Positions 929 through 42,754 of a stretch of 59,947 bases of DNA are shown piece after piece; within the stretch, counting starts at the first letter, position 1, and the number at the start of each line of letters is the position of its first letter. The position numbers and the translations under genes were made by a program. Source of the stretch: Naegleria gruberi. Its lineage: Eukaryota. The notes below the pieces were generated by a model that was given only the letters and a program-made list of their open reading frames with translations, was not told the origin of the DNA and did no database searches. Location of the stretch: NCBI GenBank assembly GCA_000004985.1, contig GG738937.1, one strand, 5' to 3'.

Positions 929-1049
929 AAAGACTACAGCACCACATGTTCCCAAGTTGTCTCCAACCTCAGTACTGATGTGGCTCGACGATGCTTAACT
1001 TCTCAAATCGGACGGGATGAGGTGCGTTCATCGTGATATGGTCGTAGCC
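929..1049 (-). rRNA. 5S ribosomal RNA, full-length copy A (about 121 nt)
   Basis: The reverse complement reads GGCTACGACCATATCACGATGAACGCACCTCATCCCGTCCGATTTGAGAAGTTAAGCATCGTCGAGCCACATCAGTACTGAGGTTGGAGACAACTTGGGAACATGTGGTGCTGTAGTCTTT. It carries the universal 5S blocks CCCGTCCGAT, GAAGTTAAGC, GTACTGAGGTTGGAGAC and GGTGCTGTAG. The 5' end GGCTACGA pairs with the 3' end CTGTAGTC to form helix I. A T-run follows the 3' end. Confidence 0.85.
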
Positions 1050-1080
1050 ATTCAATCCCTTAATCTTTCACTCTTCAATT
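1050..1080 (-). promoter_or_regulatory. Conserved 5S upstream element shared by copies A and B
   Basis: The 30 bp immediately 5' of the 5S start (plus strand ttcaatcccttaatctttcactcttcaa) are nearly identical to 13002-13029 upstream of copy B. Flanks diverge beyond that point. The element is absent upstream of copy C. Confidence 0.3.
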
Positions 1081-2607
1081 AATAATTTGAATGACACCAG
1101 ATTCACTTTTCAACAATAAATTTAGGCAAATAAATCAGCGGATGCAAATTGAAATAGTTCCATATCTTTCTCACTTAATGTCATGAATATTCCTTATTTG
1201 ATCTCATTTTAGTGNNNNNNNNNNNNNNNNNNNNNNNNNNNNNNNNNNNNNNNNNNNNNNNNNNNNNNNNNNNNNNNNNNNNNNNNNNNNNNNNNNNNNN
1301 NNNNNNNNNNNNNNNNNNNNNNNNNNNNNNNNNNNNNNNNNNNNNNNNNNNNNNNNNNNNNNNNNNNNNNNNNNNNNNNNNNNNNNNNNNNNNNNNNNNN
1401 NNNNNNNNNNNNNNNNNNNNNNNNNNNNNNNNNNNNNNNNNNNNNNNNNNNNNNNNNNNNNNNNNNNNNNNNNNNNNNNNNNNNNNNNNNNNNNNNNNNN
1501 NNNNNNNNNNNNNNNNNNNNNNNNNNNNNNNNNNNNNNNNNNNNNNNNNNNNNNNNNNNNNNNNNNNNNNNNNNNNNNNNNNNNNNNNNNNNNNNNNNNN
1601 NNNNNNNNNNNNNNNNNNNNNNNNNNNNNNNNNNNNNNNNNNNNNNNNNNNNNNNNNNNNNNNNNNNNNNNNNNNNNNNNNNNNNNNNNNNNNNNNNNNN
1701 NNNNNNNNNNNNNNNNNNNNNNNNNNNNNNNNNNNNNNNNNNNNNNNNNNNNNNNNNNNNNNNNNNNNNNNNNNNNNNNNNNNNNNNNNNNNNNNNNNNN
1801 NNNNNNNNNNNNNNNNNNNNNNNNNNNNNNNNNNNNNNNNNNNNNNNNNNNNNNNNNNNNNNNNNNNNNNNNNNNNNNNNNNNNNNNNNNNNNNNNNNNN
1901 NNNNNNNNNNNNNNNNNNNNNNNNNNNNNNNNNNNNNNNNNNNNNNNNNNNNNNNNNNNNNNNNNNNNNNNNNNNNNNNNNNNNNNNNNNNNNNNNNNNN
2001 NNNNNNNNNNNNNNNNNNNNNNNNNNNNNNNNNNNNNNNNNNNNNNNNNNNNNNNNNNNNNNNNNNNNNNNNNNNNNNNNNNNNNNNNNNNNNNNNNNNN
2101 NNNNNNNNNNNNNNNNNNNNNNNNNNNNNNNNNNNNNNNNNNNNNNNNNNNNNNNNNNNNNNNNNNNNNNNNNNNNNNNNNNNNNNNNNNNNNNNNNNNN
2201 NNNNNNNNNNNNNNNNNNNNNNNNNNNNNNNNNNNNNNNNNNNNNNNNNNNNNNNNNNNNNNNNNNNNNNNNNNNNNNNNNNNNNNNNNNNNNNNNNNNN
2301 NNNNNNNNNNNNNNNNNNNNNNNNNNNNNNNNNNNNNNNNNNNNNNNNNNNNNNNNNNNNNNNNNNNNNNNNNNNNNNNNNNNNNNNNNNNNNNNNNNNN
2401 NNNNNNNNNNNNNNNNNNNNNNNNNNNNNNNNNNNNNNNNNNNNNNNNNNNNNNNNNNNNNNNNNNNNNNNNNNNNNNNNNNNNNNNNNNNNNNNNNNNN
2501 NNNNNNNNNNNNNNNNNNNNNNNNNNNNNNNNNNNNNNNNNNNNNNNNNNNNNNNNNNNNNNNNNNNNNNNNNNNNNNNNNNNNNNNNNNNNNNNNNNNN
2601 NNNNNNN

Positions 2608-3846: not shown

Positions 3847-4437
3847 ATGTCAGCATCAGATACTTCCCTGCATCGTGCCAACAGCAACAACAAAGTCACA
3901 CTAAACGTTGCCATTTGTCAATGCGATATAAAATTCAAACAAATAGACATTAACAAGGAACACATTTCACACATGCTTTCTCCACTCGATTCGAAATTAA
4001 TTGATTTTCTCGTCTTTCCGGAAATGACACTCTCTGGCTATGTTTTCAAAGATAGGGAGGATATCTTTCCATTCTGTGAGAGATCTGGTCCTGGTGGAGA
4101 GTATTTNNNNNNNNNNNNNNNNNNNNNNNNNNNNNNNNNNNNNNNNNNNNNNNNNNAGGAAATTGGATCTGATGTATTGGTATTCATGTGTAATTGGTTT
4201 TCAACTGATTGTCTCGAGTATTGGTTGGATAGATTACAACCCATGATTTCTACCAAAGAGCAATTTCCATATTTTGTGGCTTGTAATCGAATTGGAAATG
4301 AATGTGGAATTGATTTTTGTGGAATGAGTTGTGTTTATAATNTGAGTCATGAAATGCAACCAAGTAATGCTTTGGTAACTAGTTTACCACAATCAGAGGA
4401 AGCTGTCAAGCTTGTTAGCATTGCCTTGAATTTGTAA
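3847..4437 (+). CDS. Carbon-nitrogen hydrolase family protein, Nta1-like amidase
   Basis: ATG at 3847. LNVAICQCDIKFKQIDINKEHISHML...IDFLVFPEMTLSGYVFKDREDIFPFCE matches the N-terminal signature of the nitrilase/CN-hydrolase superfamily (Q...N / FPE..L.GY). A 50-nt internal N-run (4107-4156) and one N at 4342 interrupt it. Confidence 0.55.
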   Translation: MSASDTSLHRANSNNKVTLNVAICQCDIKFKQIDINKEHISHMLSPLDSKLIDFLVFPEMTLSGYVFKDREDIFPFCERSGPGGEYXXXXXXXXXXXXXXXXXXEIGSDVLVFMCNWFSTDCLEYWLDRLQPMISTKEQFPYFVACNRIGNECGIDFCGMSCVYNXSHEMQPSNALVTSLPQSEEAVKLVSIALNL

Positions 4438-5533: not shown

Positions 5534-7770
5534 TCCTTTACAAAATAAAAGAGCGGAAGCAAATGATTATTAAGGAAGAAGAGCATTGATTTTGGATTTG
5601 TATTGTTTCGATAGATTGAAGAATTTGTCAATTCAATTAATGGATCAGTTTTCAGTCGTTGGAGTTGGTGTATGCATACTATGTTTCAGAAGGATTTATT
5701 CTATCATTCTCAGTTGCCATTTCGTTTGAGAGAAATGAAACTTGTTGACTTGTGTGAACTCCTCACCAGAAGATATCCATTTAATACTTGAAGGAAACGG
5801 TATGAATCCTCAGCATTTACGATTGTAGTATTGTTGTCATTGTGATTTTAAAAGGAGAAAGAAAAATGAAACTTTCTAACAAATTGATGCAAGAAATTGA
5901 TTCTTTGATTGAAANNNNNNNNNNNNNNNNNNNNNNNNNNNNNNNNNNNNNNNNNNNNNNNNNNNNNNNNNNNNNNNNNNNNNNNNNNNNNNNNNNNNNN
6001 NNNNNNNNNNNNNNNNNNNNNNNNNNNNNNNNNNNNNNNNNNNNNNNNNNNNNNNNNNNNNNNNNNNNNNNNNNNNNNNNNNNNNNNNNNNNNNNNNNNN
6101 NNNNNNNNNNNNNNNNNNNNNNNNNNNNNNNNNNNNNNNNNNNNNNNNNNNNNNNNNNNNNNNNNNNNNNNNNNNNNNNNNNNNNNNNNNNNNNNNNNNN
6201 NNNNNNNNNNNNNNNNNNNNNNNNNNNNNNNNNNNNNNNNNNNNNNNNNNNNNNNNNNNNNNNNNNNNNNNNNNNNNNNNNNNNNNNNNNNNNNNNNNNN
6301 NNNNNNNNNNNNNNNNNNNNNNNNNNNNNNNNNNNNNNNNNNNNNNNNNNNNNNNNNNNNNNNNNNNNNNNNNNNNNNNNNNNNNNNNNNNNNNNNNNNN
6401 NNNNNNNNNNNNNNNNNNNNNNNNNNNNNNNNNNNNNNNNNNNNNNNNNNNNNNNNNNNNNNNNNNNNNNNNNNNNNNNNNNNNNNNNNNNNNNNNNNNN
6501 NNNNNNNNNNNNNNNNNNNNNNNNNNNNNNNNNNNNNNNNNNNNNNNNNNNNNNNNNNNNNNNNNNNNNNNNNNNNNNNNNNNNNNNNNNNNNNNNNNNN
6601 NNNNNNNNNNNNNNNNNNNNNNNNNNNNNNNNNNNNNNNNNNNNNNNNNNNNNNNNNNNNNNNNNNNNNNNNNNNNNNNNNNNNNNNNNNNNNNNNNNNN
6701 NNNNNNNNNNNNNNNNNNNNNNNNNNNNNNNNNNNNNNNNNNNNNNNNNNNNNNNNNNNNNNNNNNNNNNNNNNNNNNNNNNNNNNNNNNNNNNNNNNNN
6801 NNNNNNNNNNNNNNNNNNNNNNNNNNNNNNNNNNNNNNNNNNNNNNNNNNNNNNNNNNNNNNNNNNNNNNNNNNNNNNNNNNNNNNNNNNNNNNNNNNNN
6901 NNNNNNNNNNNNNNNNNNNNNNNNNNNNNNNNNNNNNNNNNNNNNNNNNNNNNNNNNNNNNNNNNNNNNNNNNNNNNNNNNNNNNNNNNNNNNNNNNNNN
7001 NNNNNNNNNNNNNNNNNNNNNNNNNNNNNNNNNNNNNNNNNNNNNNNNNNNNNNNNNNNNNNNNNNNNNNNNNNNNNNNNNNNNNNNNNNNNNNNNNNNN
7101 NNNNNNNNNNNNNNNNNNNNNNNNNNNNNNNNNNNNNNNNNNNNNNNNNNNNNNNNNNNNNNNNNNNNNNNNNNNNNNNNNNNNNNNNNNNNNNNNNNNN
7201 NNNNNNNNNNNNNNNNNNNNNNNNNNNNNNNNNNNNNNNNNNNNNNNNNNNNNNNNNNNNNNNNNNNNNNNNNNNNNNNNNNNNNNNNNNNNNNNNNNNN
7301 NNNNNNNNNNNNNNNNNNNNNNNNNNNNNNNNNNNNNNNNNNNNNNNNNNNNNNNNNNNNNNNNNNNNNNNNNNNNNNNNNNNNNNNNNNNNNNNNNNNN
7401 NNNNNNNNNNNNNNNNNNNNNNNNNNNNNNNNNNNNNNNNNNNNNNNNNNNNNNNNNNNNNNNNNNNNNNNNNNNNNNNNNNNNNNNNNNNNNNNNNNNN
7501 NNNNNNNNNNNNNNNNNNNNNNNNNNNNNNNNNNNNNNNNNNNNNNNNNNNNNNNNNNNNNNNNNNNNNNNNNNNNNNNNNNNNNNNNNNNNNNNNNNNN
7601 NNNNNNNNNNNNNNNNNNNNNNNNNNNNNNNNNNNNNNNNNNNNNNNNNNNNNNNNNNNNNNNNNNNNNNNNNNNNNNNNNNNNNNNNNNNNNNNNNNNN
7701 NNNNNNNNNNNNNNNNNNNNNNNNNNNNNNNNNNNNNNNNNNNNNNNNNNNNNNNNNNNNNNNNNNNNNN

Positions 7771-7852: not shown

Positions 7853-8700
7853 TTCAGCAAGTATTTCTATTGCTCCATTTAAATCACCTTTTCCAATATA
7901 GGATTGAATTAAACAGTTGTGATGATGTGGTATCTAATCTATCTTTTGAAACACTCTCAAATAATTCAATGGCCTTATCAAATTTTTCACATTTGTTATA
8001 GAAATTAATCATTGAGGTTATCGAATGATTATTTGATGTCTTGTTCTCTCCAATTATATTTAACACCTTCAATCCTTGTTCATAATTCTTGCTGTCAGCA
8101 CAAGCAGTTAAAATAATTGTCAATGTGGCCGAGTCGGGTGAAATATTTAGATGTTGCATTTCAGCTAGTATCTCTATTGCTCCATTTAAATCACCTTTTC
8201 CAATATAGGATTGAATTACACAATTATATGATGTGGTATCTACTCTATCTTTTGTAACGCTCTCAAATAATTCAATGGCCTTATCAAATTTTTCACATTT
8301 GTTATAGAAATTAATCATTGCATTCAACATCCTAATAGTGATGTGCTTGATTTTGTTCTTAAGCGAAAGTACTTTCAACCCTTGTTCGTAATTCTTACTG
8401 TCAGCACAAGCAGTTAAAATAATTGTAAATGTGGCCGAGTCGGGTGAAATATTTTGCTGTTGCATTTCAGCAAGCATCTCTATTGCTCTATTTAAATCAC
8501 TTTTTCCAATATAGGATTGAATTAAACAATTATATGAAGTTGTATCCAATCCATCACTGCTAACGTTTCTAGTAATTTCAATTGCCTTATCATAGTCTTC
8601 ACATTTGTTATAAAAATTCACCATTGTGGTTAATAGCACTTTGTTGGTAGTTTTGGAATGTTCAATCATTGAGCAAATCATTCTACTTTCTTTTTGTTTG
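7771..8700. repeat. Tandem repeat of about 306-308 bp encoding a three-helix-hairpin PPR-like module (about 102 aa)
   Basis: The string (c/t)ataattcttgctgtcagcacaagcagttaaaataat recurs at about 7774, 8081 and 8387. Units are more than 90 percent identical. The array abuts the 5915-7770 gap and very likely continues into it. Confidence 0.8.
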
Positions 8701-9251
8701 TTTTTCTTTAAAGAGAAAGTCAATGAGGAAATAAACAGATTATCAAAAATTTTGATTTTTTGAGCATTCATTTCATGTAATAATGTCATCCCCTCTTCAA
8801 AATTATATTTAAACAAACACTGTGCATAGTAATTGTAGGCGTATAAACTGACTTGTTTTCTTTCAAGTAAAACAGAAAATATATGTTTGGCAATATCCAA
8901 TTCAAAATCATTCGGATAACTTGAGAGAACTTTTAAGATTTGATCCAATCTAAAACTCTTCAGAGAAGCAAGTGATGAATTTCCAAGTTTTCTAACAAGA
9001 GTTACAACCTCATCATAGCCTTCTTCTTGCACTAATGTAGAAATGGCAATATCAATGGTTCTAATAGTGGCAGAGCCTTCATCAAAATGATGAATAATAT
9101 TTTTCAATTCATCAATATATTTCCTTCTTTCCACTTCCGATCGTTTATGCTTAGAGCACAAAGTAATCATAAGGGTTGCAAGACTCATTGATTTTGTGTT
9201 CGTATTCGCATACAGACTTGCGCATTCTTCAAAGGTTAAATGTGGTTTCAT
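7884..9251 (-). CDS. Pentatricopeptide (PPR)-like helical-repeat protein
   Basis: First in-frame ATG at 9251; a TAA lies upstream in frame at 9363-9365. Repeated units such as SYNCLIQSYIGKSDLNRAIEMLAEMQQQNISPDSATFTIILTACADSKNYEQGLKVL fit the PPR consensus (t.YN.lI..y.k.g....A..l...M...g..Pd..T..iil.ac). The ORF ends DTTSSQLFNSILYWKR where the repeat frame is lost. Confidence 0.65.
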   Translation of the reverse strand: MKPHLTFEECASLYANTNTKSMSLATLMITLCSKHKRSEVERRKYIDELKNIIHHFDEGSATIRTIDIAISTLVQEEGYDEVVTLVRKLGNSSLASLKSFRLDQILKVLSSYPNDFELDIAKHIFSVLLERKQVSLYAYNYYAQCLFKYNFEEGMTLLHEMNAQKIKIFDNLFISSLTFSLKKNKQKESRMICSMIEHSKTTNKVLLTTMVNFYNKCEDYDKAIEITRNVSSDGLDTTSYNCLIQSYIGKSDLNRAIEMLAEMQQQNISPDSATFTIILTACADSKNYEQGLKVLSLKNKIKHITIRMLNAMINFYNKCEKFDKAIELFESVTKDRVDTTSYNCVIQSYIGKGDLNGAIEILAEMQHLNISPDSATLTIILTACADSKNYEQGLKVLNIIGENKTSNNHSITSMINFYNKCEKFDKAIELFESVSKDRLDTTSSQLFNSILYWKR

Positions 9252-9279
9252 TATTTCTCTGAACACTTTTTCTGCCGAA

Positions 9280-12282: not shown

Positions 12283-12908
12283 TCTCCATTAAACTCAAAA
12301 TTTTGTAAACCTAGGCATTCATTGTAAATAAATCAAAATGTAAATATTCAATAAAGCACACAGTTGAGTTTTTTTGACCCCTTATTTCGTTGAACTTTTG
12401 TTCAATACACGTCCTACTTAAATTTCAATGTAATTTATCAACTCTGTGTTTACTTCATGTTCAACTATCTCAGAGAAGTTAAATCATACAATAACAAACA
12501 ACGACCATAATTCAGTTCTCAAAAACCATACATCTTGAAAGGCTTTTAAGATTTGTTCGAATTTCCACTCTTTGGTTTCTTCATACTTACCTTGAAGGAC
12601 ATTTCAGTGATCATGCAGACTGAAATGTGAATCTGGAAACTCTCCTCCTTGCACTCAGAGGATGAGAAGCCAGAATTTGGTCAATAATCAAAGTGGTTGT
12701 TGCCCTCCTTCTCAATTTTTTCCTGTGAGGATTCATCTGGTATGATTTCTCGCTCTGTTAAATAATAGAAATTTTGTGTGTGTTGGAATTTTGCTGCGGT
12801 GAAGATCCAATGCCAACTGAAACCAATACAAGGCAAATTATAGGTTTGCTGAAGCTACATCAAAATTCCAAAAGCTCAAGATTGTGAGCAAGTCTGTGGT
12901 AAAAGATA

Positions 12909-13001
12909 AAAAGACTACAGCACCACAGGTTCCTGGCTCGACGATGCTTAACTTCTCAAATCGGACGGGATGAGGTGCATTCATCGTGATATGGCCGTAG
13001 C
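12909..13001 (-). pseudogene. 5S rRNA variant (copy B) with a 28-nt internal deletion
   Basis: Its termini and central region match copy A, but the 28 nt caagttgtctccaacctcagtactgatg are missing. That removes most of the helix IV/V arm. Plus-strand 12931-12937 reads ggttcct followed directly by tggctcgacg. It shares the 30-bp upstream and about 20-bp downstream flanks with copy A. A T-run follows the 3' end. Confidence 0.7.
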
Positions 13002-13139
13002 CATTCACTTCCTTAATCTTTCACTCTTCAACAATATGAAGTAAATCTATCTTTAGAATAACACAAACATAGCACGGCGGGTACAATCAATAAGTTAACT
13101 AGGCACTTTACAATTTATTCATCAATTTCATACAAATAT

Positions 13140-16050: not shown

Positions 16051-19000
16051 GGTTTTGCAAAGAGTTGAAAGTCCATTAGCGATCTTGGAAAATATATTCG
16101 AAATTTCATTTGTCGAAACCTGTTCATGAAACCAAATAGCTTGACATTTACAACGCTACATNNNNNNNNNNNNNNNNNNNNNNNNNNNNNNNNNNNNNNN
16201 NNNNNNNNNNNNNNNNNNNNNNNNNNNNNNNNNNNNNNNNNNNNNNNNNNNNNNNNNNNNNNNNNNNNNNNNNNNNNNNNNNNNNNNNNNNNNNNNNNNN
16301 NNNNNNNNNNNNNNNNNNNNNNNNNNNNNNNNNNNNNNNNNNNNNNNNNNNNNNNNNNNNNNNNNNNNNNNNNNNNNNNNNNNNNNNNNNNNNNNNNNNN
16401 NNNNNNNNNNNNNNNNNNNNNNNNNNNNNNNNNNNNNNNNNNNNNNNNNNNNNNNNNNNNNNNNNNNNNNNNNNNNNNNNNNNNNNNNNNNNNNNNNNNN
16501 NNNNNNNNNNNNNNNNNNNNNNNNNNNNNNNNNNNNNNNNNNNNNNNNNNNNNNNNNNNNNNNNNNNNNNNNNNNNNNNNNNNNNNNNNNNNNNNNNNNN
16601 NNNNNNNNNNNNNNNNNNNNNNNNNNNNNNNNNNNNNNNNNNNNNNNNNNNNNNNNNNNNNNNNNNNNNNNNNNNNNNNNNNNNNNNNNNNNNNNNNNNN
16701 NNNNNNNNNNNNNNNNNNNNNNNNNNNNNNNNNNNNNNNNNNNNNNNNNNNNNNNNNNNNNNNNNNNNNNNNNNNNNNNNNNNNNNNNNNNNNNNNNNNN
16801 NNNNNNNNNNNNNNNNNNNNNNNNNNNNNNNNNNNNNNNNNNNNNNNNNNNNNNNNNNNNNNNNNNNNNNNNNNNNNNNNNNNNNNNNNNNNNNNNNNNN
16901 NNNNNNNNNNNNNNNNNNNNNNNNNNNNNNNNNNNNNNNNNNNNNNNNNNNNNNNNNNNNNNNNNNNNNNNNNNNNNNNNNNNNNNNNNNNNNNNNNNNN
17001 NNNNNNNNNNNNNNNNNNNNNNNNNNNNNNNNNNNNNNNNNNNNNNNNNNNNNNNNNNNNNNNNNNNNNNNNNNNNNNNNNNNNNNNNNNNNNNNNNNNN
17101 NNNNNNNNNNNNNNNNNNNNNNNNNNNNNNNNNNNNNNNNNNNNNNNNNNNNNNNNNNNNNNNNNNNNNNNNNNNNNNNNNNNNNNNNNNNNNNNNNNNN
17201 NNNNNNNNNNNNNNNNNNNNNNNNNNNNNNNNNNNNNNNNNNNNNNNNNNNNNNNNNNNNNNNNNNNNNNNNNNNNNNNNNNNNNNNNNNNNNNNNNNNN
17301 NNNNNNNNNNNNNNNNNNNNNNNNNNNNNNNNNNNNNNNNNNNNNNNNNNNNNNNNNNNNNNNNNNNNNNNNNNNNNNNNNNNNNNNNNNNNNNNNNNNN
17401 NNNNNNNNNNNNNNNNNNNNNNNNNNNNNNNNNNNNNNNNNNNNNNNNNNNNNNNNNNNNNNNNNNNNNNNNNNNNNNNNNNNNNNNNNNNNNNNNNNNN
17501 NNNNNNNNNNNNNNNNNNNNNNNNNNNNNNNNNNNNNNNNNNNNNNNNNNNNNNNNNNNNNNNNNNNNNNNNNNNNNNNNNNNNNNNNNNNNNNNNNNNN
17601 NNNNNNNNNNNNNNNNNNNNNNNNNNNNNNNNNNNNNNNNNNNNNNNNNNNNNNNNNNNNNNNNNNNNNNNNNNNNNNNNNNNNNNNNNNNNNNNNNNNN
17701 NNNNNNNNNNNNNNNNNNNNNNNNNNNNNNNNNNNNNNNNNNNNNNNNNNNNNNNNNNNNNNNNNNNNNNNNNNNNNNNNNNNNNNNNNNNNNNNNNNNN
17801 NNNNNNNNNNNNNNNNNNNNNNNNNNNNNNNNNNNNNNNNNNNNNNNNNNNNNNNNNNNNNNNNNNNNNNNNNNNNNNNNNNNNNNNNNNNNNNNNNNNN
17901 NNNNNNNNNNNNNNNNNNNNNNNNNNNNNNNNNNNNNNNNNNNNNNNNNNNNNNNNNNNNNNNNNNNNNNNNNNNNNNNNNNNNNNNNNNNNNNNNNNNN
18001 NNNNNNNNNNNNNNNNNNNNNNNNNNNNNNNNNNNNNNNNNNNNNNNNNNNNNNNNNNNNNNNNNNNNNNNNNNNNNNNNNNNNNNNNNNNNNNNNNNNN
18101 NNNNNNNNNNNNNNNNNNNNNNNNNNNNNNNNNNNNNNNNNNNNNNNNNNNNNNNNNNNNNNNNNNNNNNNNNNNNNNNNNNNNNNNNNNNNNNNNNNNN
18201 NNNNNNNNNNNNNNNNNNNNNNNNNNNNNNNNNNNNNNNNNNNNNNNNNNNNNNNNNNNNNNNNNNNNNNNNNNNNNNNNNNNNNNNNNNNNNNNNNNNN
18301 NNNNNNNNNNNNNNNNNNNNNNNNNNNNNNNNNNNNNNNNNNNNNNNNNNNNNNNNNNNNNNNNNNNNNNNNNNNNNNNNNNNNNNNNNNNNNNNNNNNN
18401 NNNNNNNNNNNNNNNNNNNNNNNNNNNNNNNNNNNNNNNNNNNNNNNNNNNNNNNNNNNNNNNNNNNNNNNNNNNNNNNNNNNNNNNNNNNNNNNNNNNN
18501 NNNNNNNNNNNNNNNNNNNNNNNNNNNNNNNNNNNNNNNNNNNNNNNNNNNNNNNNNNNNNNNNNNNNNNNNNNNNNNNNNNNNNNNNNNNNNNNNNNNN
18601 NNNNNNNNNNNNNNNNNNNNNNNNNNNNNNNNNNNNNNNNNNNNNNNNNNNNNNNNNNNNNNNNNNNNNNNNNNNNNNNNNNNNNNNNNNNNNNNNNNNN
18701 NNNNNNNNNNNNNNNNNNNNNNNNNNNNNNNNNNNNNNNNNNNNNNNNNNNNNNNNNNNNNNNNNNNNNNNNNNNNNNNNNNNNNNNNNNNNNNNNNNNN
18801 NNNNNNNNNNNNNNNNNNNNNNNNNNNNNNNNNNNNNNNNNNNNNNNNNNNNNNNNNNNNNNNNNNNNNNNNNNNNNNNNNNNNNNNNNNNNNNNNNNNN
18901 NNNNNNNNNNNNNNNNNNNNNNNNNNNNNNNNNNNNNNNNNNNNNNNNNNNNNNNNNNNNNNNNNNNNNNNNNNNNNNNNNNNNNNNNNNNNNNNNNNNN

Positions 19001-19758
19001 NNNNNNNNNNNNNNNNNNNNNNNNNNNNNNNNNNNNNNNNNNNNNNNNNNNNNNNNNNNNNNNNNNNNNNNNNNNNNNNNNNNNNNNNNNNNNNNNNNNN
19101 NNNNNNNNNNNNNNNNNNNNNNNNNNNNNNNNNNNNNNNNNNNNNNNNNNNNNNNNNNNNNNNNNNNNNNNNNNNNNNNNNNNNNNNNNNNNNNNNNNNN
19201 NNNNNNNNNNNNNNNNNNNNNNNNNNNNNNNNNNNNNNNNNNNNNNNNNNNNNNNNNNNNNNNNNNNNNNNNNNNNNNNNNNNNNNNNNNNNNNNNNNNN
19301 NNNNNNNNNNNNNNNNNNNNNNNNNNNNNNNNNNNNNNNNNNNNNNNNNNNNNNNNNNNNNNNNNNNNNNNNNNNNNNNNNNNNNNNNNNNNNNNNNNNN
19401 NNNNNNNNNNNNNNNNNNNNNNNNNNNNNNNNNNNNNNNNNNNNNNNNNNNNNNNNNNNNNNNNNNNNNNNNNNNNNNNNNNNNNNNNNNNNNNNNNNNN
19501 NNNNNNNNNNNNNNNNNNNNNNNNNNNNNNNNNNNNNNNNNNNNNNNNNNNNNNNNNNNNNNNNNNNNNNNNNNNNNNNNNNNNNNNNNNNNNNNNNNNN
19601 NNNNNNNNNNNNNNNNNNNNNNNNNNNNNNNNNNNNNNNNNNNNNNNNNNNNNNNNNNNNNNNNNNNNNNNNNNNNNNNNNNNNNNNNNNNNNNNNNNNN
19701 NNNNNNNNNNNNNNNNNNNNNNNNNNNNNNNNNNNNNNNNNNNNNNNNNNNNNNNNNN

Positions 19759-22527: not shown

Positions 22528-25500
22528 AAGACACTTATTGATGAGGATGACCTTGAAATATCTCTCCTATCATAATATTAATACAATGATAATGAGTGAA
22601 TTTATACAGCAATACTCTAATAACAATATCAAGGTGATTCTTGAGTGACTGATTACATTGTGGAGTGAACATTAACAACTTTCCCTCCAAAATTTCAAAG
22701 CCTTAAATTGTGATTACCACTAAAAAAATTGCCATCATCAAAACTACTGATTGACTACTCAACTACGTAACAATGTTTGAGCATAGTGCAAGGACTATCN
22801 NNNNNNNNNNNNNNNNNNNNNNNNNNNNNNNNNNNNNNNNNNNNNNNNNNNNNNNNNNNNNNNNNNNNNNNNNNNNNNNNNNNNNNNNNNNNNNNNNNNN
22901 NNNNNNNNNNNNNNNNNNNNNNNNNNNNNNNNNNNNNNNNNNNNNNNNNNNNNNNNNNNNNNNNNNNNNNNNNNNNNNNNNNNNNNNNNNNNNNNNNNNN
23001 NNNNNNNNNNNNNNNNNNNNNNNNNNNNNNNNNNNNNNNNNNNNNNNNNNNNNNNNNNNNNNNNNNNNNNNNNNNNNNNNNNNNNNNNNNNNNNNNNNNN
23101 NNNNNNNNNNNNNNNNNNNNNNNNNNNNNNNNNNNNNNNNNNNNNNNNNNNNNNNNNNNNNNNNNNNNNNNNNNNNNNNNNNNNNNNNNNNNNNNNNNNN
23201 NNNNNNNNNNNNNNNNNNNNNNNNNNNNNNNNNNNNNNNNNNNNNNNNNNNNNNNNNNNNNNNNNNNNNNNNNNNNNNNNNNNNNNNNNNNNNNNNNNNN
23301 NNNNNNNNNNNNNNNNNNNNNNNNNNNNNNNNNNNNNNNNNNNNNNNNNNNNNNNNNNNNNNNNNNNNNNNNNNNNNNNNNNNNNNNNNNNNNNNNNNNN
23401 NNNNNNNNNNNNNNNNNNNNNNNNNNNNNNNNNNNNNNNNNNNNNNNNNNNNNNNNNNNNNNNNNNNNNNNNNNNNNNNNNNNNNNNNNNNNNNNNNNNN
23501 NNNNNNNNNNNNNNNNNNNNNNNNNNNNNNNNNNNNNNNNNNNNNNNNNNNNNNNNNNNNNNNNNNNNNNNNNNNNNNNNNNNNNNNNNNNNNNNNNNNN
23601 NNNNNNNNNNNNNNNNNNNNNNNNNNNNNNNNNNNNNNNNNNNNNNNNNNNNNNNNNNNNNNNNNNNNNNNNNNNNNNNNNNNNNNNNNNNNNNNNNNNN
23701 NNNNNNNNNNNNNNNNNNNNNNNNNNNNNNNNNNNNNNNNNNNNNNNNNNNNNNNNNNNNNNNNNNNNNNNNNNNNNNNNNNNNNNNNNNNNNNNNNNNN
23801 NNNNNNNNNNNNNNNNNNNNNNNNNNNNNNNNNNNNNNNNNNNNNNNNNNNNNNNNNNNNNNNNNNNNNNNNNNNNNNNNNNNNNNNNNNNNNNNNNNNN
23901 NNNNNNNNNNNNNNNNNNNNNNNNNNNNNNNNNNNNNNNNNNNNNNNNNNNNNNNNNNNNNNNNNNNNNNNNNNNNNNNNNNNNNNNNNNNNNNNNNNNN
24001 NNNNNNNNNNNNNNNNNNNNNNNNNNNNNNNNNNNNNNNNNNNNNNNNNNNNNNNNNNNNNNNNNNNNNNNNNNNNNNNNNNNNNNNNNNNNNNNNNNNN
24101 NNNNNNNNNNNNNNNNNNNNNNNNNNNNNNNNNNNNNNNNNNNNNNNNNNNNNNNNNNNNNNNNNNNNNNNNNNNNNNNNNNNNNNNNNNNNNNNNNNNN
24201 NNNNNNNNNNNNNNNNNNNNNNNNNNNNNNNNNNNNNNNNNNNNNNNNNNNNNNNNNNNNNNNNNNNNNNNNNNNNNNNNNNNNNNNNNNNNNNNNNNNN
24301 NNNNNNNNNNNNNNNNNNNNNNNNNNNNNNNNNNNNNNNNNNNNNNNNNNNNNNNNNNNNNNNNNNNNNNNNNNNNNNNNNNNNNNNNNNNNNNNNNNNN
24401 NNNNNNNNNNNNNNNNNNNNNNNNNNNNNNNNNNNNNNNNNNNNNNNNNNNNNNNNNNNNNNNNNNNNNNNNNNNNNNNNNNNNNNNNNNNNNNNNNNNN
24501 NNNNNNNNNNNNNNNNNNNNNNNNNNNNNNNNNNNNNNNNNNNNNNNNNNNNNNNNNNNNNNNNNNNNNNNNNNNNNNNNNNNNNNNNNNNNNNNNNNNN
24601 NNNNNNNNNNNNNNNNNNNNNNNNNNNNNNNNNNNNNNNNNNNNNNNNNNNNNNNNNNNNNNNNNNNNNNNNNNNNNNNNNNNNNNNNNNNNNNNNNNNN
24701 NNNNNNNNNNNNNNNNNNNNNNNNNNNNNNNNNNNNNNNNNNNNNNNNNNNNNNNNNNNNNNNNNNNNNNNNNNNNNNNNNNNNNNNNNNNNNNNNNNNN
24801 NNNNNNNNNNNNNNNNNNNNNNNNNNNNNNNNNNNNNNNNNNNNNNNNNNNNNNNNNNNNNNNNNNNNNNNNNNNNNNNNNNNNNNNNNNNNNNNNNNNN
24901 NNNNNNNNNNNNNNNNNNNNNNNNNNNNNNNNNNNNNNNNNNNNNNNNNNNNNNNNNNNNNNNNNNNNNNNNNNNNNNNNNNNNNNNNNNNNNNNNNNNN
25001 NNNNNNNNNNNNNNNNNNNNNNNNNNNNNNNNNNNNNNNNNNNNNNNNNNNNNNNNNNNNNNNNNNNNNNNNNNNNNNNNNNNNNNNNNNNNNNNNNNNN
25101 NNNNNNNNNNNNNNNNNNNNNNNNNNNNNNNNNNNNNNNNNNNNNNNNNNNNNNNNNNNNNNNNNNNNNNNNNNNNNNNNNNNNNNNNNNNNNNNNNNNN
25201 NNNNNNNNNNNNNNNNNNNNNNNNNNNNNNNNNNNNNNNNNNNNNNNNNNNNNNNNNNNNNNNNNNNNNNNNNNNNNNNNNNNNNNNNNNNNNNNNNNNN
25301 NNNNNNNNNNNNNNNNNNNNNNNNNNNNNNNNNNNNNNNNNNNNNNNNNNNNNNNNNNNNNNNNNNNNNNNNNNNNNNNNNNNNNNNNNNNNNNNNNNNN
25401 NNNNNNNNNNNNNNNNNNNNNNNNNNNNNNNNNNNNNNNNNNNNNNNNNNNNNNNNNNNNNNNNNNNNNNNNNNNNNNNNNNNNNNNNNNNNNNNNNNNN

Positions 25501-28500
25501 NNNNNNNNNNNNNNNNNNNNNNNNNNNNNNNNNNNNNNNNNNNNNNNNNNNNNNNNNNNNNNNNNNNNNNNNNNNNNNNNNNNNNNNNNNNNNNNNNNNN
25601 NNNNNNNNNNNNNNNNNNNNNNNNNNNNNNNNNNNNNNNNNNNNNNNNNNNNNNNNNNNNNNNNNNNNNNNNNNNNNNNNNNNNNNNNNNNNNNNNNNNN
25701 NNNNNNNNNNNNNNNNNNNNNNNNNNNNNNNNNNNNNNNNNNNNNNNNNNNNNNNNNNNNNNNNNNNNNNNNNNNNNNNNNNNNNNNNNNNNNNNNNNNN
25801 NNNNNNNNNNNNNNNNNNNNNNNNNNNNNNNNNNNNNNNNNNNNNNNNNNNNNNNNNNNNNNNNNNNNNNNNNNNNNNNNNNNNNNNNNNNNNNNNNNNN
25901 NNNNNNNNNNNNNNNNNNNNNNNNNNNNNNNNNNNNNNNNNNNNNNNNNNNNNNNNNNNNNNNNNNNNNNNNNNNNNNNNNNNNNNNNNNNNNNNNNNNN
26001 NNNNNNNNNNNNNNNNNNNNNNNNNNNNNNNNNNNNNNNNNNNNNNNNNNNNNNNNNNNNNNNNNNNNNNNNNNNNNNNNNNNNNNNNNNNNNNNNNNNN
26101 NNNNNNNNNNNNNNNNNNNNNNNNNNNNNNNNNNNNNNNNNNNNNNNNNNNNNNNNNNNNNNNNNNNNNNNNNNNNNNNNNNNNNNNNNNNNNNNNNNNN
26201 NNNNNNNNNNNNNNNNNNNNNNNNNNNNNNNNNNNNNNNNNNNNNNNNNNNNNNNNNNNNNNNNNNNNNNNNNNNNNNNNNNNNNNNNNNNNNNNNNNNN
26301 NNNNNNNNNNNNNNNNNNNNNNNNNNNNNNNNNNNNNNNNNNNNNNNNNNNNNNNNNNNNNNNNNNNNNNNNNNNNNNNNNNNNNNNNNNNNNNNNNNNN
26401 NNNNNNNNNNNNNNNNNNNNNNNNNNNNNNNNNNNNNNNNNNNNNNNNNNNNNNNNNNNNNNNNNNNNNNNNNNNNNNNNNNNNNNNNNNNNNNNNNNNN
26501 NNNNNNNNNNNNNNNNNNNNNNNNNNNNNNNNNNNNNNNNNNNNNNNNNNNNNNNNNNNNNNNNNNNNNNNNNNNNNNNNNNNNNNNNNNNNNNNNNNNN
26601 NNNNNNNNNNNNNNNNNNNNNNNNNNNNNNNNNNNNNNNNNNNNNNNNNNNNNNNNNNNNNNNNNNNNNNNNNNNNNNNNNNNNNNNNNNNNNNNNNNNN
26701 NNNNNNNNNNNNNNNNNNNNNNNNNNNNNNNNNNNNNNNNNNNNNNNNNNNNNNNNNNNNNNNNNNNNNNNNNNNNNNNNNNNNNNNNNNNNNNNNNNNN
26801 NNNNNNNNNNNNNNNNNNNNNNNNNNNNNNNNNNNNNNNNNNNNNNNNNNNNNNNNNNNNNNNNNNNNNNNNNNNNNNNNNNNNNNNNNNNNNNNNNNNN
26901 NNNNNNNNNNNNNNNNNNNNNNNNNNNNNNNNNNNNNNNNNNNNNNNNNNNNNNNNNNNNNNNNNNNNNNNNNNNNNNNNNNNNNNNNNNNNNNNNNNNN
27001 NNNNNNNNNNNNNNNNNNNNNNNNNNNNNNNNNNNNNNNNNNNNNNNNNNNNNNNNNNNNNNNNNNNNNNNNNNNNNNNNNNNNNNNNNNNNNNNNNNNN
27101 NNNNNNNNNNNNNNNNNNNNNNNNNNNNNNNNNNNNNNNNNNNNNNNNNNNNNNNNNNNNNNNNNNNNNNNNNNNNNNNNNNNNNNNNNNNNNNNNNNNN
27201 NNNNNNNNNNNNNNNNNNNNNNNNNNNNNNNNNNNNNNNNNNNNNNNNNNNNNNNNNNNNNNNNNNNNNNNNNNNNNNNNNNNNNNNNNNNNNNNNNNNN
27301 NNNNNNNNNNNNNNNNNNNNNNNNNNNNNNNNNNNNNNNNNNNNNNNNNNNNNNNNNNNNNNNNNNNNNNNNNNNNNNNNNNNNNNNNNNNNNNNNNNNN
27401 NNNNNNNNNNNNNNNNNNNNNNNNNNNNNNNNNNNNNNNNNNNNNNNNNNNNNNNNNNNNNNNNNNNNNNNNNNNNNNNNNNNNNNNNNNNNNNNNNNNN
27501 NNNNNNNNNNNNNNNNNNNNNNNNNNNNNNNNNNNNNNNNNNNNNNNNNNNNNNNNNNNNNNNNNNNNNNNNNNNNNNNNNNNNNNNNNNNNNNNNNNNN
27601 NNNNNNNNNNNNNNNNNNNNNNNNNNNNNNNNNNNNNNNNNNNNNNNNNNNNNNNNNNNNNNNNNNNNNNNNNNNNNNNNNNNNNNNNNNNNNNNNNNNN
27701 NNNNNNNNNNNNNNNNNNNNNNNNNNNNNNNNNNNNNNNNNNNNNNNNNNNNNNNNNNNNNNNNNNNNNNNNNNNNNNNNNNNNNNNNNNNNNNNNNNNN
27801 NNNNNNNNNNNNNNNNNNNNNNNNNNNNNNNNNNNNNNNNNNNNNNNNNNNNNNNNNNNNNNNNNNNNNNNNNNNNNNNNNNNNNNNNNNNNNNNNNNNN
27901 NNNNNNNNNNNNNNNNNNNNNNNNNNNNNNNNNNNNNNNNNNNNNNNNNNNNNNNNNNNNNNNNNNNNNNNNNNNNNNNNNNNNNNNNNNNNNNNNNNNN
28001 NNNNNNNNNNNNNNNNNNNNNNNNNNNNNNNNNNNNNNNNNNNNNNNNNNNNNNNNNNNNNNNNNNNNNNNNNNNNNNNNNNNNNNNNNNNNNNNNNNNN
28101 NNNNNNNNNNNNNNNNNNNNNNNNNNNNNNNNNNNNNNNNNNNNNNNNNNNNNNNNNNNNNNNNNNNNNNNNNNNNNNNNNNNNNNNNNNNNNNNNNNNN
28201 NNNNNNNNNNNNNNNNNNNNNNNNNNNNNNNNNNNNNNNNNNNNNNNNNNNNNNNNNNNNNNNNNNNNNNNNNNNNNNNNNNNNNNNNNNNNNNNNNNNN
28301 NNNNNNNNNNNNNNNNNNNNNNNNNNNNNNNNNNNNNNNNNNNNNNNNNNNNNNNNNNNNNNNNNNNNNNNNNNNNNNNNNNNNNNNNNNNNNNNNNNNN
28401 NNNNNNNNNNNNNNNNNNNNNNNNNNNNNNNNNNNNNNNNNNNNNNNNNNNNNNNNNNNNNNNNNNNNNNNNNNNNNNNNNNNNNNNNNNNNNNNNNNNN

Positions 28501-31500
28501 NNNNNNNNNNNNNNNNNNNNNNNNNNNNNNNNNNNNNNNNNNNNNNNNNNNNNNNNNNNNNNNNNNNNNNNNNNNNNNNNNNNNNNNNNNNNNNNNNNNN
28601 NNNNNNNNNNNNNNNNNNNNNNNNNNNNNNNNNNNNNNNNNNNNNNNNNNNNNNNNNNNNNNNNNNNNNNNNNNNNNNNNNNNNNNNNNNNNNNNNNNNN
28701 NNNNNNNNNNNNNNNNNNNNNNNNNNNNNNNNNNNNNNNNNNNNNNNNNNNNNNNNNNNNNNNNNNNNNNNNNNNNNNNNNNNNNNNNNNNNNNNNNNNN
28801 NNNNNNNNNNNNNNNNNNNNNNNNNNNNNNNNNNNNNNNNNNNNNNNNNNNNNNNNNNNNNNNNNNNNNNNNNNNNNNNNNNNNNNNNNNNNNNNNNNNN
28901 NNNNNNNNNNNNNNNNNNNNNNNNNNNNNNNNNNNNNNNNNNNNNNNNNNNNNNNNNNNNNNNNNNNNNNNNNNNNNNNNNNNNNNNNNNNNNNNNNNNN
29001 NNNNNNNNNNNNNNNNNNNNNNNNNNNNNNNNNNNNNNNNNNNNNNNNNNNNNNNNNNNNNNNNNNNNNNNNNNNNNNNNNNNNNNNNNNNNNNNNNNNN
29101 NNNNNNNNNNNNNNNNNNNNNNNNNNNNNNNNNNNNNNNNNNNNNNNNNNNNNNNNNNNNNNNNNNNNNNNNNNNNNNNNNNNNNNNNNNNNNNNNNNNN
29201 NNNNNNNNNNNNNNNNNNNNNNNNNNNNNNNNNNNNNNNNNNNNNNNNNNNNNNNNNNNNNNNNNNNNNNNNNNNNNNNNNNNNNNNNNNNNNNNNNNNN
29301 NNNNNNNNNNNNNNNNNNNNNNNNNNNNNNNNNNNNNNNNNNNNNNNNNNNNNNNNNNNNNNNNNNNNNNNNNNNNNNNNNNNNNNNNNNNNNNNNNNNN
29401 NNNNNNNNNNNNNNNNNNNNNNNNNNNNNNNNNNNNNNNNNNNNNNNNNNNNNNNNNNNNNNNNNNNNNNNNNNNNNNNNNNNNNNNNNNNNNNNNNNNN
29501 NNNNNNNNNNNNNNNNNNNNNNNNNNNNNNNNNNNNNNNNNNNNNNNNNNNNNNNNNNNNNNNNNNNNNNNNNNNNNNNNNNNNNNNNNNNNNNNNNNNN
29601 NNNNNNNNNNNNNNNNNNNNNNNNNNNNNNNNNNNNNNNNNNNNNNNNNNNNNNNNNNNNNNNNNNNNNNNNNNNNNNNNNNNNNNNNNNNNNNNNNNNN
29701 NNNNNNNNNNNNNNNNNNNNNNNNNNNNNNNNNNNNNNNNNNNNNNNNNNNNNNNNNNNNNNNNNNNNNNNNNNNNNNNNNNNNNNNNNNNNNNNNNNNN
29801 NNNNNNNNNNNNNNNNNNNNNNNNNNNNNNNNNNNNNNNNNNNNNNNNNNNNNNNNNNNNNNNNNNNNNNNNNNNNNNNNNNNNNNNNNNNNNNNNNNNN
29901 NNNNNNNNNNNNNNNNNNNNNNNNNNNNNNNNNNNNNNNNNNNNNNNNNNNNNNNNNNNNNNNNNNNNNNNNNNNNNNNNNNNNNNNNNNNNNNNNNNNN
30001 NNNNNNNNNNNNNNNNNNNNNNNNNNNNNNNNNNNNNNNNNNNNNNNNNNNNNNNNNNNNNNNNNNNNNNNNNNNNNNNNNNNNNNNNNNNNNNNNNNNN
30101 NNNNNNNNNNNNNNNNNNNNNNNNNNNNNNNNNNNNNNNNNNNNNNNNNNNNNNNNNNNNNNNNNNNNNNNNNNNNNNNNNNNNNNNNNNNNNNNNNNNN
30201 NNNNNNNNNNNNNNNNNNNNNNNNNNNNNNNNNNNNNNNNNNNNNNNNNNNNNNNNNNNNNNNNNNNNNNNNNNNNNNNNNNNNNNNNNNNNNNNNNNNN
30301 NNNNNNNNNNNNNNNNNNNNNNNNNNNNNNNNNNNNNNNNNNNNNNNNNNNNNNNNNNNNNNNNNNNNNNNNNNNNNNNNNNNNNNNNNNNNNNNNNNNN
30401 NNNNNNNNNNNNNNNNNNNNNNNNNNNNNNNNNNNNNNNNNNNNNNNNNNNNNNNNNNNNNNNNNNNNNNNNNNNNNNNNNNNNNNNNNNNNNNNNNNNN
30501 NNNNNNNNNNNNNNNNNNNNNNNNNNNNNNNNNNNNNNNNNNNNNNNNNNNNNNNNNNNNNNNNNNNNNNNNNNNNNNNNNNNNNNNNNNNNNNNNNNNN
30601 NNNNNNNNNNNNNNNNNNNNNNNNNNNNNNNNNNNNNNNNNNNNNNNNNNNNNNNNNNNNNNNNNNNNNNNNNNNNNNNNNNNNNNNNNNNNNNNNNNNN
30701 NNNNNNNNNNNNNNNNNNNNNNNNNNNNNNNNNNNNNNNNNNNNNNNNNNNNNNNNNNNNNNNNNNNNNNNNNNNNNNNNNNNNNNNNNNNNNNNNNNNN
30801 NNNNNNNNNNNNNNNNNNNNNNNNNNNNNNNNNNNNNNNNNNNNNNNNNNNNNNNNNNNNNNNNNNNNNNNNNNNNNNNNNNNNNNNNNNNNNNNNNNNN
30901 NNNNNNNNNNNNNNNNNNNNNNNNNNNNNNNNNNNNNNNNNNNNNNNNNNNNNNNNNNNNNNNNNNNNNNNNNNNNNNNNNNNNNNNNNNNNNNNNNNNN
31001 NNNNNNNNNNNNNNNNNNNNNNNNNNNNNNNNNNNNNNNNNNNNNNNNNNNNNNNNNNNNNNNNNNNNNNNNNNNNNNNNNNNNNNNNNNNNNNNNNNNN
31101 NNNNNNNNNNNNNNNNNNNNNNNNNNNNNNNNNNNNNNNNNNNNNNNNNNNNNNNNNNNNNNNNNNNNNNNNNNNNNNNNNNNNNNNNNNNNNNNNNNNN
31201 NNNNNNNNNNNNNNNNNNNNNNNNNNNNNNNNNNNNNNNNNNNNNNNNNNNNNNNNNNNNNNNNNNNNNNNNNNNNNNNNNNNNNNNNNNNNNNNNNNNN
31301 NNNNNNNNNNNNNNNNNNNNNNNNNNNNNNNNNNNNNNNNNNNNNNNNNNNNNNNNNNNNNNNNNNNNNNNNNNNNNNNNNNNNNNNNNNNNNNNNNNNN
31401 NNNNNNNNNNNNNNNNNNNNNNNNNNNNNNNNNNNNNNNNNNNNNNNNNNNNNNNNNNNNNNNNNNNNNNNNNNNNNNNNNNNNNNNNNNNNNNNNNNNN

Positions 31501-37500: not shown

Positions 37501-39655
37501 NNNNNNNNNNNNNNNNNNNNNNNNNNNNNNNNNNNNNNNNNNNNNNNNNNNNNNNNNNNNNNNNNNNNNNNNNNNNNNNNNNNNNNNNNNNNNNNNNNNN
37601 NNNNNNNNNNNNNNNNNNNNNNNNNNNNNNNNNNNNNNNNNNNNNNNNNNNNNNNNNNNNNNNNNNNNNNNNNNNNNNNNNNNNNNNNNNNNNNNNNNNN
37701 NNNNNNNNNNNNNNNNNNNNNNNNNNNNNNNNNNNNNNNNNNNNNNNNNNNNNNNNNNNNNNNNNNNNNNNNNNNNNNNNNNNNNNNNNNNNNNNNNNNN
37801 NNNNNNNNNNNNNNNNNNNNNNNNNNNNNNNNNNNNNNNNNNNNNNNNNNNNNNNNNNNNNNNNNNNNNNNNNNNNNNNNNNNNNNNNNNNNNNNNNNNN
37901 NNNNNNNNNNNNNNNNNNNNNNNNNNNNNNNNNNNNNNNNNNNNNNNNNNNNNNNNNNNNNNNNNNNNNNNNNNNNNNNNNNNNNNNNNNNNNNNNNNNN
38001 NNNNNNNNNNNNNNNNNNNNNNNNNNNNNNNNNNNNNNNNNNNNNNNNNNNNNNNNNNNNNNNNNNNNNNNNNNNNNNNNNNNNNNNNNNNNNNNNNNNN
38101 NNNNNNNNNNNNNNNNNNNNNNNNNNNNNNNNNNNNNNNNNNNNNNNNNNNNNNNNNNNNNNNNNNNNNNNNNNNNNNNNNNNNNNNNNNNNNNNNNNNN
38201 NNNNNNNNNNNNNNNNNNNNNNNNNNNNNNNNNNNNNNNNNNNNNNNNNNNNNNNNNNNNNNNNNNNNNNNNNNNNNNNNNNNNNNNNNNNNNNNNNNNN
38301 NNNNNNNNNNNNNNNNNNNNNNNNNNNNNNNNNNNNNNNNNNNNNNNNNNNNNNNNNNNNNNNNNNNNNNNNNNNNNNNNNNNNNNNNNNNNNNNNNNNN
38401 NNNNNNNNNNNNNNNNNNNNNNNNNNNNNNNNNNNNNNNNNNNNNNNNNNNNNNNNNNNNNNNNNNNNNNNNNNNNNNNNNNNNNNNNNNNNNNNNNNNN
38501 NNNNNNNNNNNNNNNNNNNNNNNNNNNNNNNNNNNNNNNNNNNNNNNNNNNNNNNNNNNNNNNNNNNNNNNNNNNNNNNNNNNNNNNNNNNNNNNNNNNN
38601 NNNNNNNNNNNNNNNNNNNNNNNNNNNNNNNNNNNNNNNNNNNNNNNNNNNNNNNNNNNNNNNNNNNNNNNNNNNNNNNNNNNNNNNNNNNNNNNNNNNN
38701 NNNNNNNNNNNNNNNNNNNNNNNNNNNNNNNNNNNNNNNNNNNNNNNNNNNNNNNNNNNNNNNNNNNNNNNNNNNNNNNNNNNNNNNNNNNNNNNNNNNN
38801 NNNNNNNNNNNNNNNNNNNNNNNNNNNNNNNNNNNNNNNNNNNNNNNNNNNNNNNNNNNNNNNNNNNNNNNNNNNNNNNNNNNNNNNNNNNNNNNNNNNN
38901 NNNNNNNNNNNNNNNNNNNNNNNNNNNNNNNNNNNNNNNNNNNNNNNNNNNNNNNNNNNNNNNNNNNNNNNNNNNNNNNNNNNNNNNNNNNNNNNNNNNN
39001 NNNNNNNNNNNNNNNNNNNNNNNNNNNNNNNNNNNNNNNNNNNNNNNNNNNNNNNNNNNNNNNNNNNNNNNNNNNNNNNNNNNNNNNNNNNNNNNNNNNN
39101 NNNNNNNNNNNNNNNNNNNNNNNNNNNNNNNNNNNNNNNNNNNNNNNNNNNNNNNNNNNNNNNNNNNNNNNNNNNNNNNNNNNNNNNNNNNNNNNNNNNN
39201 NNNNNNNNNNNNNNNNNNNNNNNNNNNNNNNNNNNNNNNNNNNNNNNNNNNNNNNNNNNNNNNNNNNNNNNNNNNNNNNNNNNNNNNNNNNNNNNNNNNN
39301 NNNNNNNNNNNNNNNNNNNNNNNNNNNNNNNNNNNNNNNNNNNNNNNNNNNNNNNNNNNNNNNNNNNNNNNNNNNNNNNNNNNNNNNNNNNNNNNNNNNN
39401 NNNNNNNNNNNNNNNNNNNNNNNNNNNNNNNNNNNNNNNNNNNNNNNNNNNNNNNNNNNNNNNNNNNNNNNNNNNNNNNNNNNNNNNNNNNNNNNNNNNN
39501 NNNNNNNNNNNNNNNNNNNNNNNNNNNNNNNNNNNNNNNNNNNNNNNNNNNNNNNNNNNNNNNNNNNNNNNNNNNNNNNNNNNNNNNNNNNNNNNNNNNN
39601 NNNNNNNNNNNNNNNNNNNNNNNNNNNNNNNNNNNNNNNNNNNNNNNNNNNNNNN

Positions 39656-42634: not shown

Positions 42635-42754
42635 GGCTACGGCCATATCACGATGAATGCACCTCATCCCGTCCGATTTGAGAAGTTAAGCATCGTCGAG
42701 CCACATCAGTACTGAGGTTGGAGACAACTTGGGAACCTGTGGTGCTGTAGTCTT
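42635..42754 (+). rRNA. 5S ribosomal RNA, full-length copy C
   Basis: GGCTACGGCCATATCACGATGAATGCACCTCATCCCGTCCGATTTGAGAAGTTAAGCATCGTCGAGCCACATCAGTACTGAGGTTGGAGACAACTTGGGAACCTGTGGTGCTGTAGTCTTT. It differs from copy A at about 4 positions. T-run terminator TCTTTT at 42751-42756, with further T-runs downstream. It starts 104 bp after the 41157-42530 gap. Confidence 0.85.

Follow-up and report, generated by a model that had tools for sequence, protein, structure and literature searches.

The stretch of Naegleria gruberi DNA analysed here (contig GG738937.1 of assembly GCA_000004985.1, 59,947 nt, hereafter the window) consists of N over 57% of its length, which leaves 25.9 kb of non-N bases with a G+C content of 33.5%. 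The N-runs lie at 1215-2607, 5915-7770, 16162-19758, 22800-39655, 41157-42530, 43692-44683, 47037-49448, 50896-51415 and 53857-58853. An Rfam search of the window returned three 5S rRNA genes (RF00001), which we call copies A, B and C. Exact protein look-ups placed Sm D2 and NAEGRDRAFT_76176 among the open reading frames. By eye, two large repeat-rich ORFs on the minus strand resemble a PPR-like repeat protein (7884-9266) and an NHL-repeat-like protein (47033-50449), and a further repeat-rich ORF on the plus strand (50892-52916) resembles a cysteine-rich protein with about ten CSTPVCDSKCTTC…SVCS repeats. A scaffold of 502,116 bp carries annotated proteins identical to those of the window (EFC36156.1 and EFC45618.1 are examples), and thus JGI scaffold_93 of strain NEG-M, as the window is known, is probably an allelic or redundant haplotig of part of that scaffold. 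The surroundings of the SmD2 gene in N. fowleri contain other neighbours than those in the window, and no 5S gene was found within 20 kb of it.

Copy C (42635-42753, plus strand; 105.4 bits) is full length, equals the family consensus and is identical to a 5S gene from another N. gruberi strain (locus L005). Copy A (931-1049, minus strand; 101.8 bits) is also full length and departs from the consensus by G8A, T24C and C103A, the first of which breaks the helix I pair 8-113. Copy B (12912-13002, minus strand; 69.9 bits, E=1e-12) is the consensus 5S without positions 70-97, so that 9 nt stand in place of 36 positions of the RF00001 model. It is 91 nt long, and not 93 nt as given in an earlier note on this DNA. 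Outside the deletion it agrees with copy C at 91 of 91 positions, without point substitutions, and where A and C disagree, at three sites, it has the base of copy C. The clean internal deletion of 28 nt described in the earlier note is therefore real at the level of this assembly, and the string quoted there as deleted is the exact reverse complement of the missing segment, CATCAGTACTGAGGTTGGAGACAACTTG. The junction, GAGCCA|GGAACC (5S positions 69 and 98; window 12933-12934, minus strand), is unique and has no microhomology: the 69-nt prefix and the 22-nt suffix add up to 91 nt with zero overlap.

Downstream of NAEGRDRAFT_76176, 137 bp past its stop codon, lies copy B. A U1 snRNA-like gene is arranged tail-to-tail with it, the 3' ends being 159 bp apart. 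The 3' end of copy B keeps the T-run that had been claimed for it, a Pol III terminator-like T5 at 12908-12912 (minus strand), with a second run of T4 three nucleotides further on. Such a run, of three to five T's past the final T of the gene, follows the gene in 10/10 5S loci.

The N. gruberi 5S family has been catalogued before. Table S1 of PMC3369914 contains 279 putative 5S genes over more than 100 scaffolds, including about 15 short entries of 80-112 nt. Copies A and C are listed there (scaffold_93:930-1046 and 42638-42754), while copy B is missing. Copy B is thus new as an uncatalogued locus, but it is of a known pseudogene kind. The same paper scores the family as 'tandem'; yet its own coordinates place the genes singly, on more than 100 scaffolds.

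The gap in copy B might be an assembly or sequencing artefact at a locus that really holds a full-length 5S gene. The high N content of the window, the redundancy of the scaffold with part of the 502-kb scaffold and the presence of the deletion in a single assembly could all be read in this way; a search of other assemblies for a homologue of the ORF that spans the junction found none. Against this, the flanks of copy B are unique, and an independent metagenome contig (L003; ENA ERZ929261 contig k127_450021), which is the ortholog of the copy-B locus at about 99% identity, has a 5S-like sequence with the same upstream block exactly at this place. Moreover, a clean loss of 28 nt from a gene of 119 nt, with perfect sequence on both sides, is atypical of Sanger assembly error. 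Copy B is also absent from Table S1, in which A and C of the same scaffold do appear. We regard this explanation as highly improbable.

Further Naegleria-type 5S loci were obtained from sequence collections. A scan of metagenome contigs gave one, L004, which is environmental and of the N. gruberi type; neither a strict pattern nor a looser one found any in the bacterial and archaeal genome collection or in the viral contigs. Because 5S genes have an open antisense frame, spurious ORFs over them occur in the protein collection. A 50-aa antisense query retrieved eight such ORFs, and their contigs yielded six further 5S loci. The eight, proteins P0010-P0017 (ENA-derived, 37-87 aa), translate Naegleria 5S genes in antisense (…DYSTTGSQVVSNLSTDVARRCLTSQIGRDEVHSS) and represent spurious gene calls. 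An N. gruberi strain, from the same sample as L003, is the source of L005 and L006, while L007-L010 belong to a second Naegleria species, whose MCM8 shares 79% identity with its orthologs in both N. gruberi and N. fowleri and 68% with that of Willaertia. L006 (positions 1-1354 of ENA ERZ929261 contig k127_101776) is a cluster of Pol III genes, in which a 5S gene of 121 nt, with T33C and a 2-nt insertion in loop C (92 bits), has as neighbours tRNA-Glu(TTC), tRNA-Met(CAT) and a second tRNA-Glu(TTC). On L007, within a called ORF of 490 aa, positions 3910-3978 (plus strand) gave a U6atac-like Rfam match of 28.9 bits (gathering score 33; E=0.0013), which is probably a false positive.

The consequences of the deletion can be read against the promoter of the gene. 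In type 1 Pol III promoters box A lies at +50-60, the IE at +67-72 and box C at +80-90 (PMC7279448); we used these positions together with the internal control region consensus of PMC3369914. Box A, AGTTAAGCATCGTCG, is kept in copy B (12939-12953, minus strand; 5S +50..+64) as an exact match to the consensus. The best box C match in copy C lies at +80..+97, with 2 mismatches to the consensus, and falls wholly inside the segment deleted from copy B, whose internal control region is consequently incomplete. Under the canonical type 1 model the deletion of the whole box C argues against efficient transcription of copy B, and the canonical, TFIIIA- and box C-dependent promoter function should be lost or crippled. 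TFIIIA, however, is reported as not recognisable in N. gruberi (PMC3369914), and our search of the literature on Naegleria TFIIIA returned only this 2012 paper, which reports its absence. Box C may therefore be less important in N. gruberi than it is in yeast or Xenopus, and copy B, with its upstream element, box A and terminator intact, could still be transcribed.

The deletion also alters the predicted RNA. By a six-sequence alignment copy B lacks 12 of 39 consensus base pairs, with helix IV, loop E and most of helix V gone, in agreement with the claim that the deletion takes out most of the helix IV/V arm. In the minimum free energy fold, a calculation that had been proposed for the short variant, helices I-III form as in full-length 5S, whereas the third arm collapses to a stub of 4 bp; the energy is -27.2 kcal/mol against -41.5 for copy C and is not better than that of shuffled sequences (z=-1.44, with 20 of 200 shuffles equally good). 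Compensatory changes distinguish the two Naegleria 5S types at four pairs, of which two lie in helix V; this indicates that the arm missing in copy B is under structural selection in the genus. A functional 5S gene is expected to match RF00001 over its full length with helices I-V; copy B does not, and its score lies below the range of 101.8-105.4 bits of its two neighbours. What it does combine is clear homology to 5S with a structure-destroying lesion, as a pseudogene should. From the established role of the arm and of box C, we infer that its product cannot be a working ribosomal 5S RNA. Considered by itself, copy B is chiefly a matter of annotation: its score still exceeds the Rfam 5S threshold, so that automated annotation will report a 5S gene here, and a pseudogene flag is warranted.

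The upstream block of copy B, from -1 to -32 (13003-13034, minus strand), carries TTGTT at -32..-28 (13030-13034). The corresponding block of copy A occupies 1050-1081 (minus strand), with the proximal TTRTT degenerated to TAATT, and copy C has TTGTT at 42603-42607 within its own -32..-1 segment (42603-42634, plus strand), which is without the A/B block. PMC3369914 had already reported an internal control region and a 'TATA box' for the 5S genes of N. gruberi. We compared the upstream regions of eight independent loci from two Naegleria species (copies B and C, L004 and L006-L010). Over the segment -32..-1 the mean pairwise identity is 0.41, and over -100..-33 it is 0.27. T occupies -32 in 6/8 loci and each of -31, -29, -28 and -5 in 7/8, and A at -26 and G at -10 are each found in 6/8. 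The motif TTRTT begins exactly at -32 in six of the eight, with a background of 0.0068 per position (P about 1e-9). Compared with 20,000 random draws from the same sequences, there are 4 columns with at least 7/8 identical bases (null mean 0.11), an information content of 19.7 bits (null 10.2 +/- 1.4) and a mean pairwise identity of 13.1 of 32 positions (null 8.5 +/- 0.5); on none of the three measures did a single draw reach the observed value.

The consensus at -32 is TTRTTnA (TTGTTGAA in copy B and L004). It is not TATAAA, nor does it otherwise qualify as TATA-type. The last three bases before the gene are species-specific, RAT in the gruberi type and mostly CTC in the second species, and the element is absent upstream of the three tRNA genes on L006. 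A core common to both species, in a flank that is otherwise not homogenised within either of them, looks like the outcome of selection on a functional element. TFIIIB/TBP sits at this upstream position on Pol III genes. From its place and its conservation in these eight loci, the -32 element most likely acts as an upstream Pol III promoter element. The question raised earlier, whether the block shared by A and B is such an element and whether an alignment of 5S loci would show it to be general, thus receives a divided answer. The portion formed by TTRTT at -32, A at -26, G at -10 and T at -5 is general, while the full block of 30 bp is specific to A and B and is a closely related sub-variant of a promoter-like element found throughout the genus.

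The kinship of A and B rests on this sub-variant. The claim that both copies carry the same upstream block of about 30 bp stands: they are identical at 27/29 positions over -1..-29 and at 28/32 over -1..-32, and the exact 21-mer TTGAAGAGTGAAAGATTAAGG (13011-13031 in copy B) occurs in the window only at A and B, with none expected by chance in 100 shuffles. Among the locus pairs the A-B value of 28/32 is an outlier, far above the 7-20/32 of the remaining 35, and points to recent shared ancestry beyond the general element. The flanks of copy C, previously described as unrelated, do lack the A/B block, but they match those of A and B at 16-18 of 32 upstream positions and share TTGTT at -32.

An alternative view is that A and B are not specifically related, and that purifying selection on a common promoter makes a duplication appear where there was none. 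A general upstream element does exist, as shown above, and the similarity of A and B stops about where this element stops, near -32; upstream of -33 it is not significant (z=0.33). In addition, two pieces of the A/B block, GAGTGAA and AGATTAA, recur in L010, from the other species, with different spacing (z about 4), an observation that is only suggestive given the 36 pairs tested. What this view does not account for is the distance between the identity of A and B, with its exact run of 21 nt, and that of independent loci, which share only 7-20 of the 32 upstream positions. Most positions of the block are unconserved in the family as a whole, and selection alone would not suffice to keep them alike in two neighbours 12 kb apart. 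We therefore think it unlikely that the common promoter explains the block, and keep to descent of A and B from a recent common source.

The extent of the shared unit is smaller than the earlier note supposed. Downstream, where it saw a similar block of 20 bp, only the T-run and the 7-mer CAGACTT (12890-12896, minus strand) are shared with copy A; the 7-mer is the sole match outside the T-run and is not significant, with at least eight of 45 locus pairs more similar in this region. Homology extending beyond the gene into both flanks, which a segmental duplication would leave, is thus not found for A and B. Since the downstream flank is not shared beyond chance, the unit would begin near -32 and end at the terminator, which makes some 155 bp and not clearly 180 bp; it reaches about 175 bp if CAGACTT is counted. 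Of the history proposed in that note, duplication of a unit of some 180 bp followed by internal loss, the kinship of A and B and a short, sharp-edged unit remain, but the common downstream flank does not.

A short unit with sharp edges at a new site is also what retroposition, or a transposon-like carrier, would leave behind, as in 5S-derived SINEs or processed pseudogenes. The unit shared by A and B, however, includes 32 bp lying 5' of the mature end, which would be absent from a Pol III transcript. No A-tail is present, and no direct repeats resembling target-site duplications were found flanking either the A or the B unit. Both the upstream sequence and the lack of such duplications argue against retroposition, and we give this route very little credence as the means by which A or B was dispersed.

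Copy A itself looks slightly degenerate, with TAATT in the place of TTRTT and the broken pair in helix I. A partial duplicate of its upstream block lies 35 bp further upstream (1102-1123, minus strand; 22 nt, 77% identity to 1067-1088). This distal duplicate keeps an intact TTGTTGAA, while the proximal version (1067-1088) reads TAATTGAA. The three substitutions of copy A are not found in copy B. Hence the copying would predate them, or the gene body of B was homogenised later. The zero substitutions of copy B against the consensus would fit either a young copy or one that is still homogenised, and they are compatible with function as well.

Taken together, we consider it probable that copy B is a 5S pseudogene within the dispersed family of about 279 copies, of one sub-lineage with copy A and disabled by the 28-bp deletion, and that the upstream block has two layers. 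In this scheme copy B would have been born as a copy of a minimal 5S unit, made up of the upstream element of about 32 bp, the gene and the T-run; it would share a sub-lineage with copy A, which lies 12 kb away. Positions 70-97 of the 5S would then have been lost in a single 28-bp deletion without microhomology; a copying step followed by internal loss is the simplest account of copy B. The first upstream layer would be genus-wide and fixed in position (TTRTT at -32..-28, A at -26, A/T at -14/-13, G at -10 and T at -5), and the second would be the identity specific to A and B, owed to the recent common descent of the two copies.

The ortholog of the locus in the other strain bears on the fate of copy B. 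L003 keeps an identical upstream block, but its 5S sequence lacks 9 nt (positions 6-14, CGGCCATAT; window 12989-12997), a gap that lies near the end of the metagenome contig, in its last 21 nt. The contig stops at about 5S position 30, short of the 28-nt junction, and its spacer differs from that of the window by insertions totalling 10 bp. The 9-nt loss would destroy helix I and loop A, and a different deletion in the ortholog could fit a copy-B locus in decay. L003, the variant gene of L006 and the roughly 15 short entries of Table S1 show together that defective copies are a regular feature of the Naegleria 5S family. Its pattern matches a birth-and-death multigene family that sheds defective copies and, by analogy, resembles the dispersed families of fungi.

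Could copy B nevertheless be a functional gene, a 'mini-5S' of about 91 nt that Pol III would transcribe from box A and the -32 element without need of box C? The whole upstream block with its intact TTGTT at -32, box A and the T5 terminator are all in place, the 91 nt that were kept match the consensus without a substitution, the fold of helices I-III is that of full-length 5S, and the report that TFIIIA was not found in N. gruberi (PMC3369914) leaves room for transcription driven from upstream. But the fold is no better than that of shuffles, the absence of substitutions is to be expected anyway at a strain divergence of about 1%, and the 9-nt deletion in the ortholog of the other strain would destroy helix I and loop A. 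The same junction was not found at a second locus, and short defective 5S copies are common in the N. gruberi genome. We thus hold a functional mini-5S to be an unlikely reading of copy B, and prefer that of a pseudogene. A bolder version of it, for which we see an equally slender chance, would make box C dispensable altogether: a non-TATA -32 element (TTRTTGAA-like) would be the main driver of 5S transcription, and copy B would give rise to a stable 91-nt RNA composed of helices I-III, the uL18/L5-binding half of the molecule. If this were true, copy B would amount to a naturally occurring mutant without box C, and would testify to an unusual, upstream-dependent promoter architecture of 5S genes.

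Dispersed 5S families that evolve by birth and death and include truncated 5S pseudogenes have been described in filamentous fungi (Selker et al. 1981; Rooney & Ward 2005, as related in PMC5555474), and PMC5555474 classes truncated fungal copies as pseudogenes with destroyed secondary structure. The Neurospora-type arrangement is similar to that of Naegleria in its scattered single genes, unrelated flanks and near-identical coding regions, with a minority of copies truncated or deleted. It differs in that Naegleria belongs to the Heterolobosea and in the nature of the lesion, which is an internal loss of 28 nt in copy B and end truncation in fungi. Fungal upstream elements are TATA-like, whereas the conserved core in Naegleria is TTRTT(G)AA at -32. 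The pseudogene of Xenopus laevis oocyte 5S DNA, for which the word 'pseudogene' was originally used, is a partial 5S near an intact gene, present as a 3'-truncated duplicate within each tandem repeat unit. Copy B is likewise a partial homologous copy, but it is dispersed, single and internally deleted.

The 5S genes of several fungi, plants and insects have, in addition to the internal promoter, an upstream TATA-like element near -30. Full-length Naegleria 5S genes agree with this type 1 architecture in having box A at +50-64, a box C-like sequence at +80-97 and a fixed element about 30 bp upstream. They depart from it in that the core is not TATA, TFIIIA has not been detected and the role of the element is read from conservation. 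Transcripts of human 5S pseudogenes, such as RNA5SP141, a RIG-I ligand, are an example of defective 5S copies that are transcribed and biologically active; they belong to an unrelated organism and an unrelated biology, and for copy B transcription is hypothetical.

The interest of copy B is that of a natural deletion mutant in which the upstream element, box A and the terminator are kept and box C is gone. Whether box C is required in Naegleria is a relevant matter because TFIIIA was not found in the lineage. The TTRTT motif at -32 is a concrete candidate for a genus-wide upstream promoter element of 5S genes, and is a more useful by-product of the analysis than copy B itself.

The U1 snRNA-like gene that faces copy B spans 12583-12752 of the window (plus strand). 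It matches RF00003 over the full length of the model with 51.6 bits (gathering score 69.5; E=5e-10), and shows the 5' end AUACUUACCU, the SL-I loop GAUCAUGCAG, the SL-II loop UUGCACUC and the Sm site AAUUUUUU. A TTGTT is found upstream of it at 12553-12557, that is, at -30..-26, which is 2 nt away from where the 5S element sits. Chance may explain it, or it could represent a promoter element shared among small-RNA genes.
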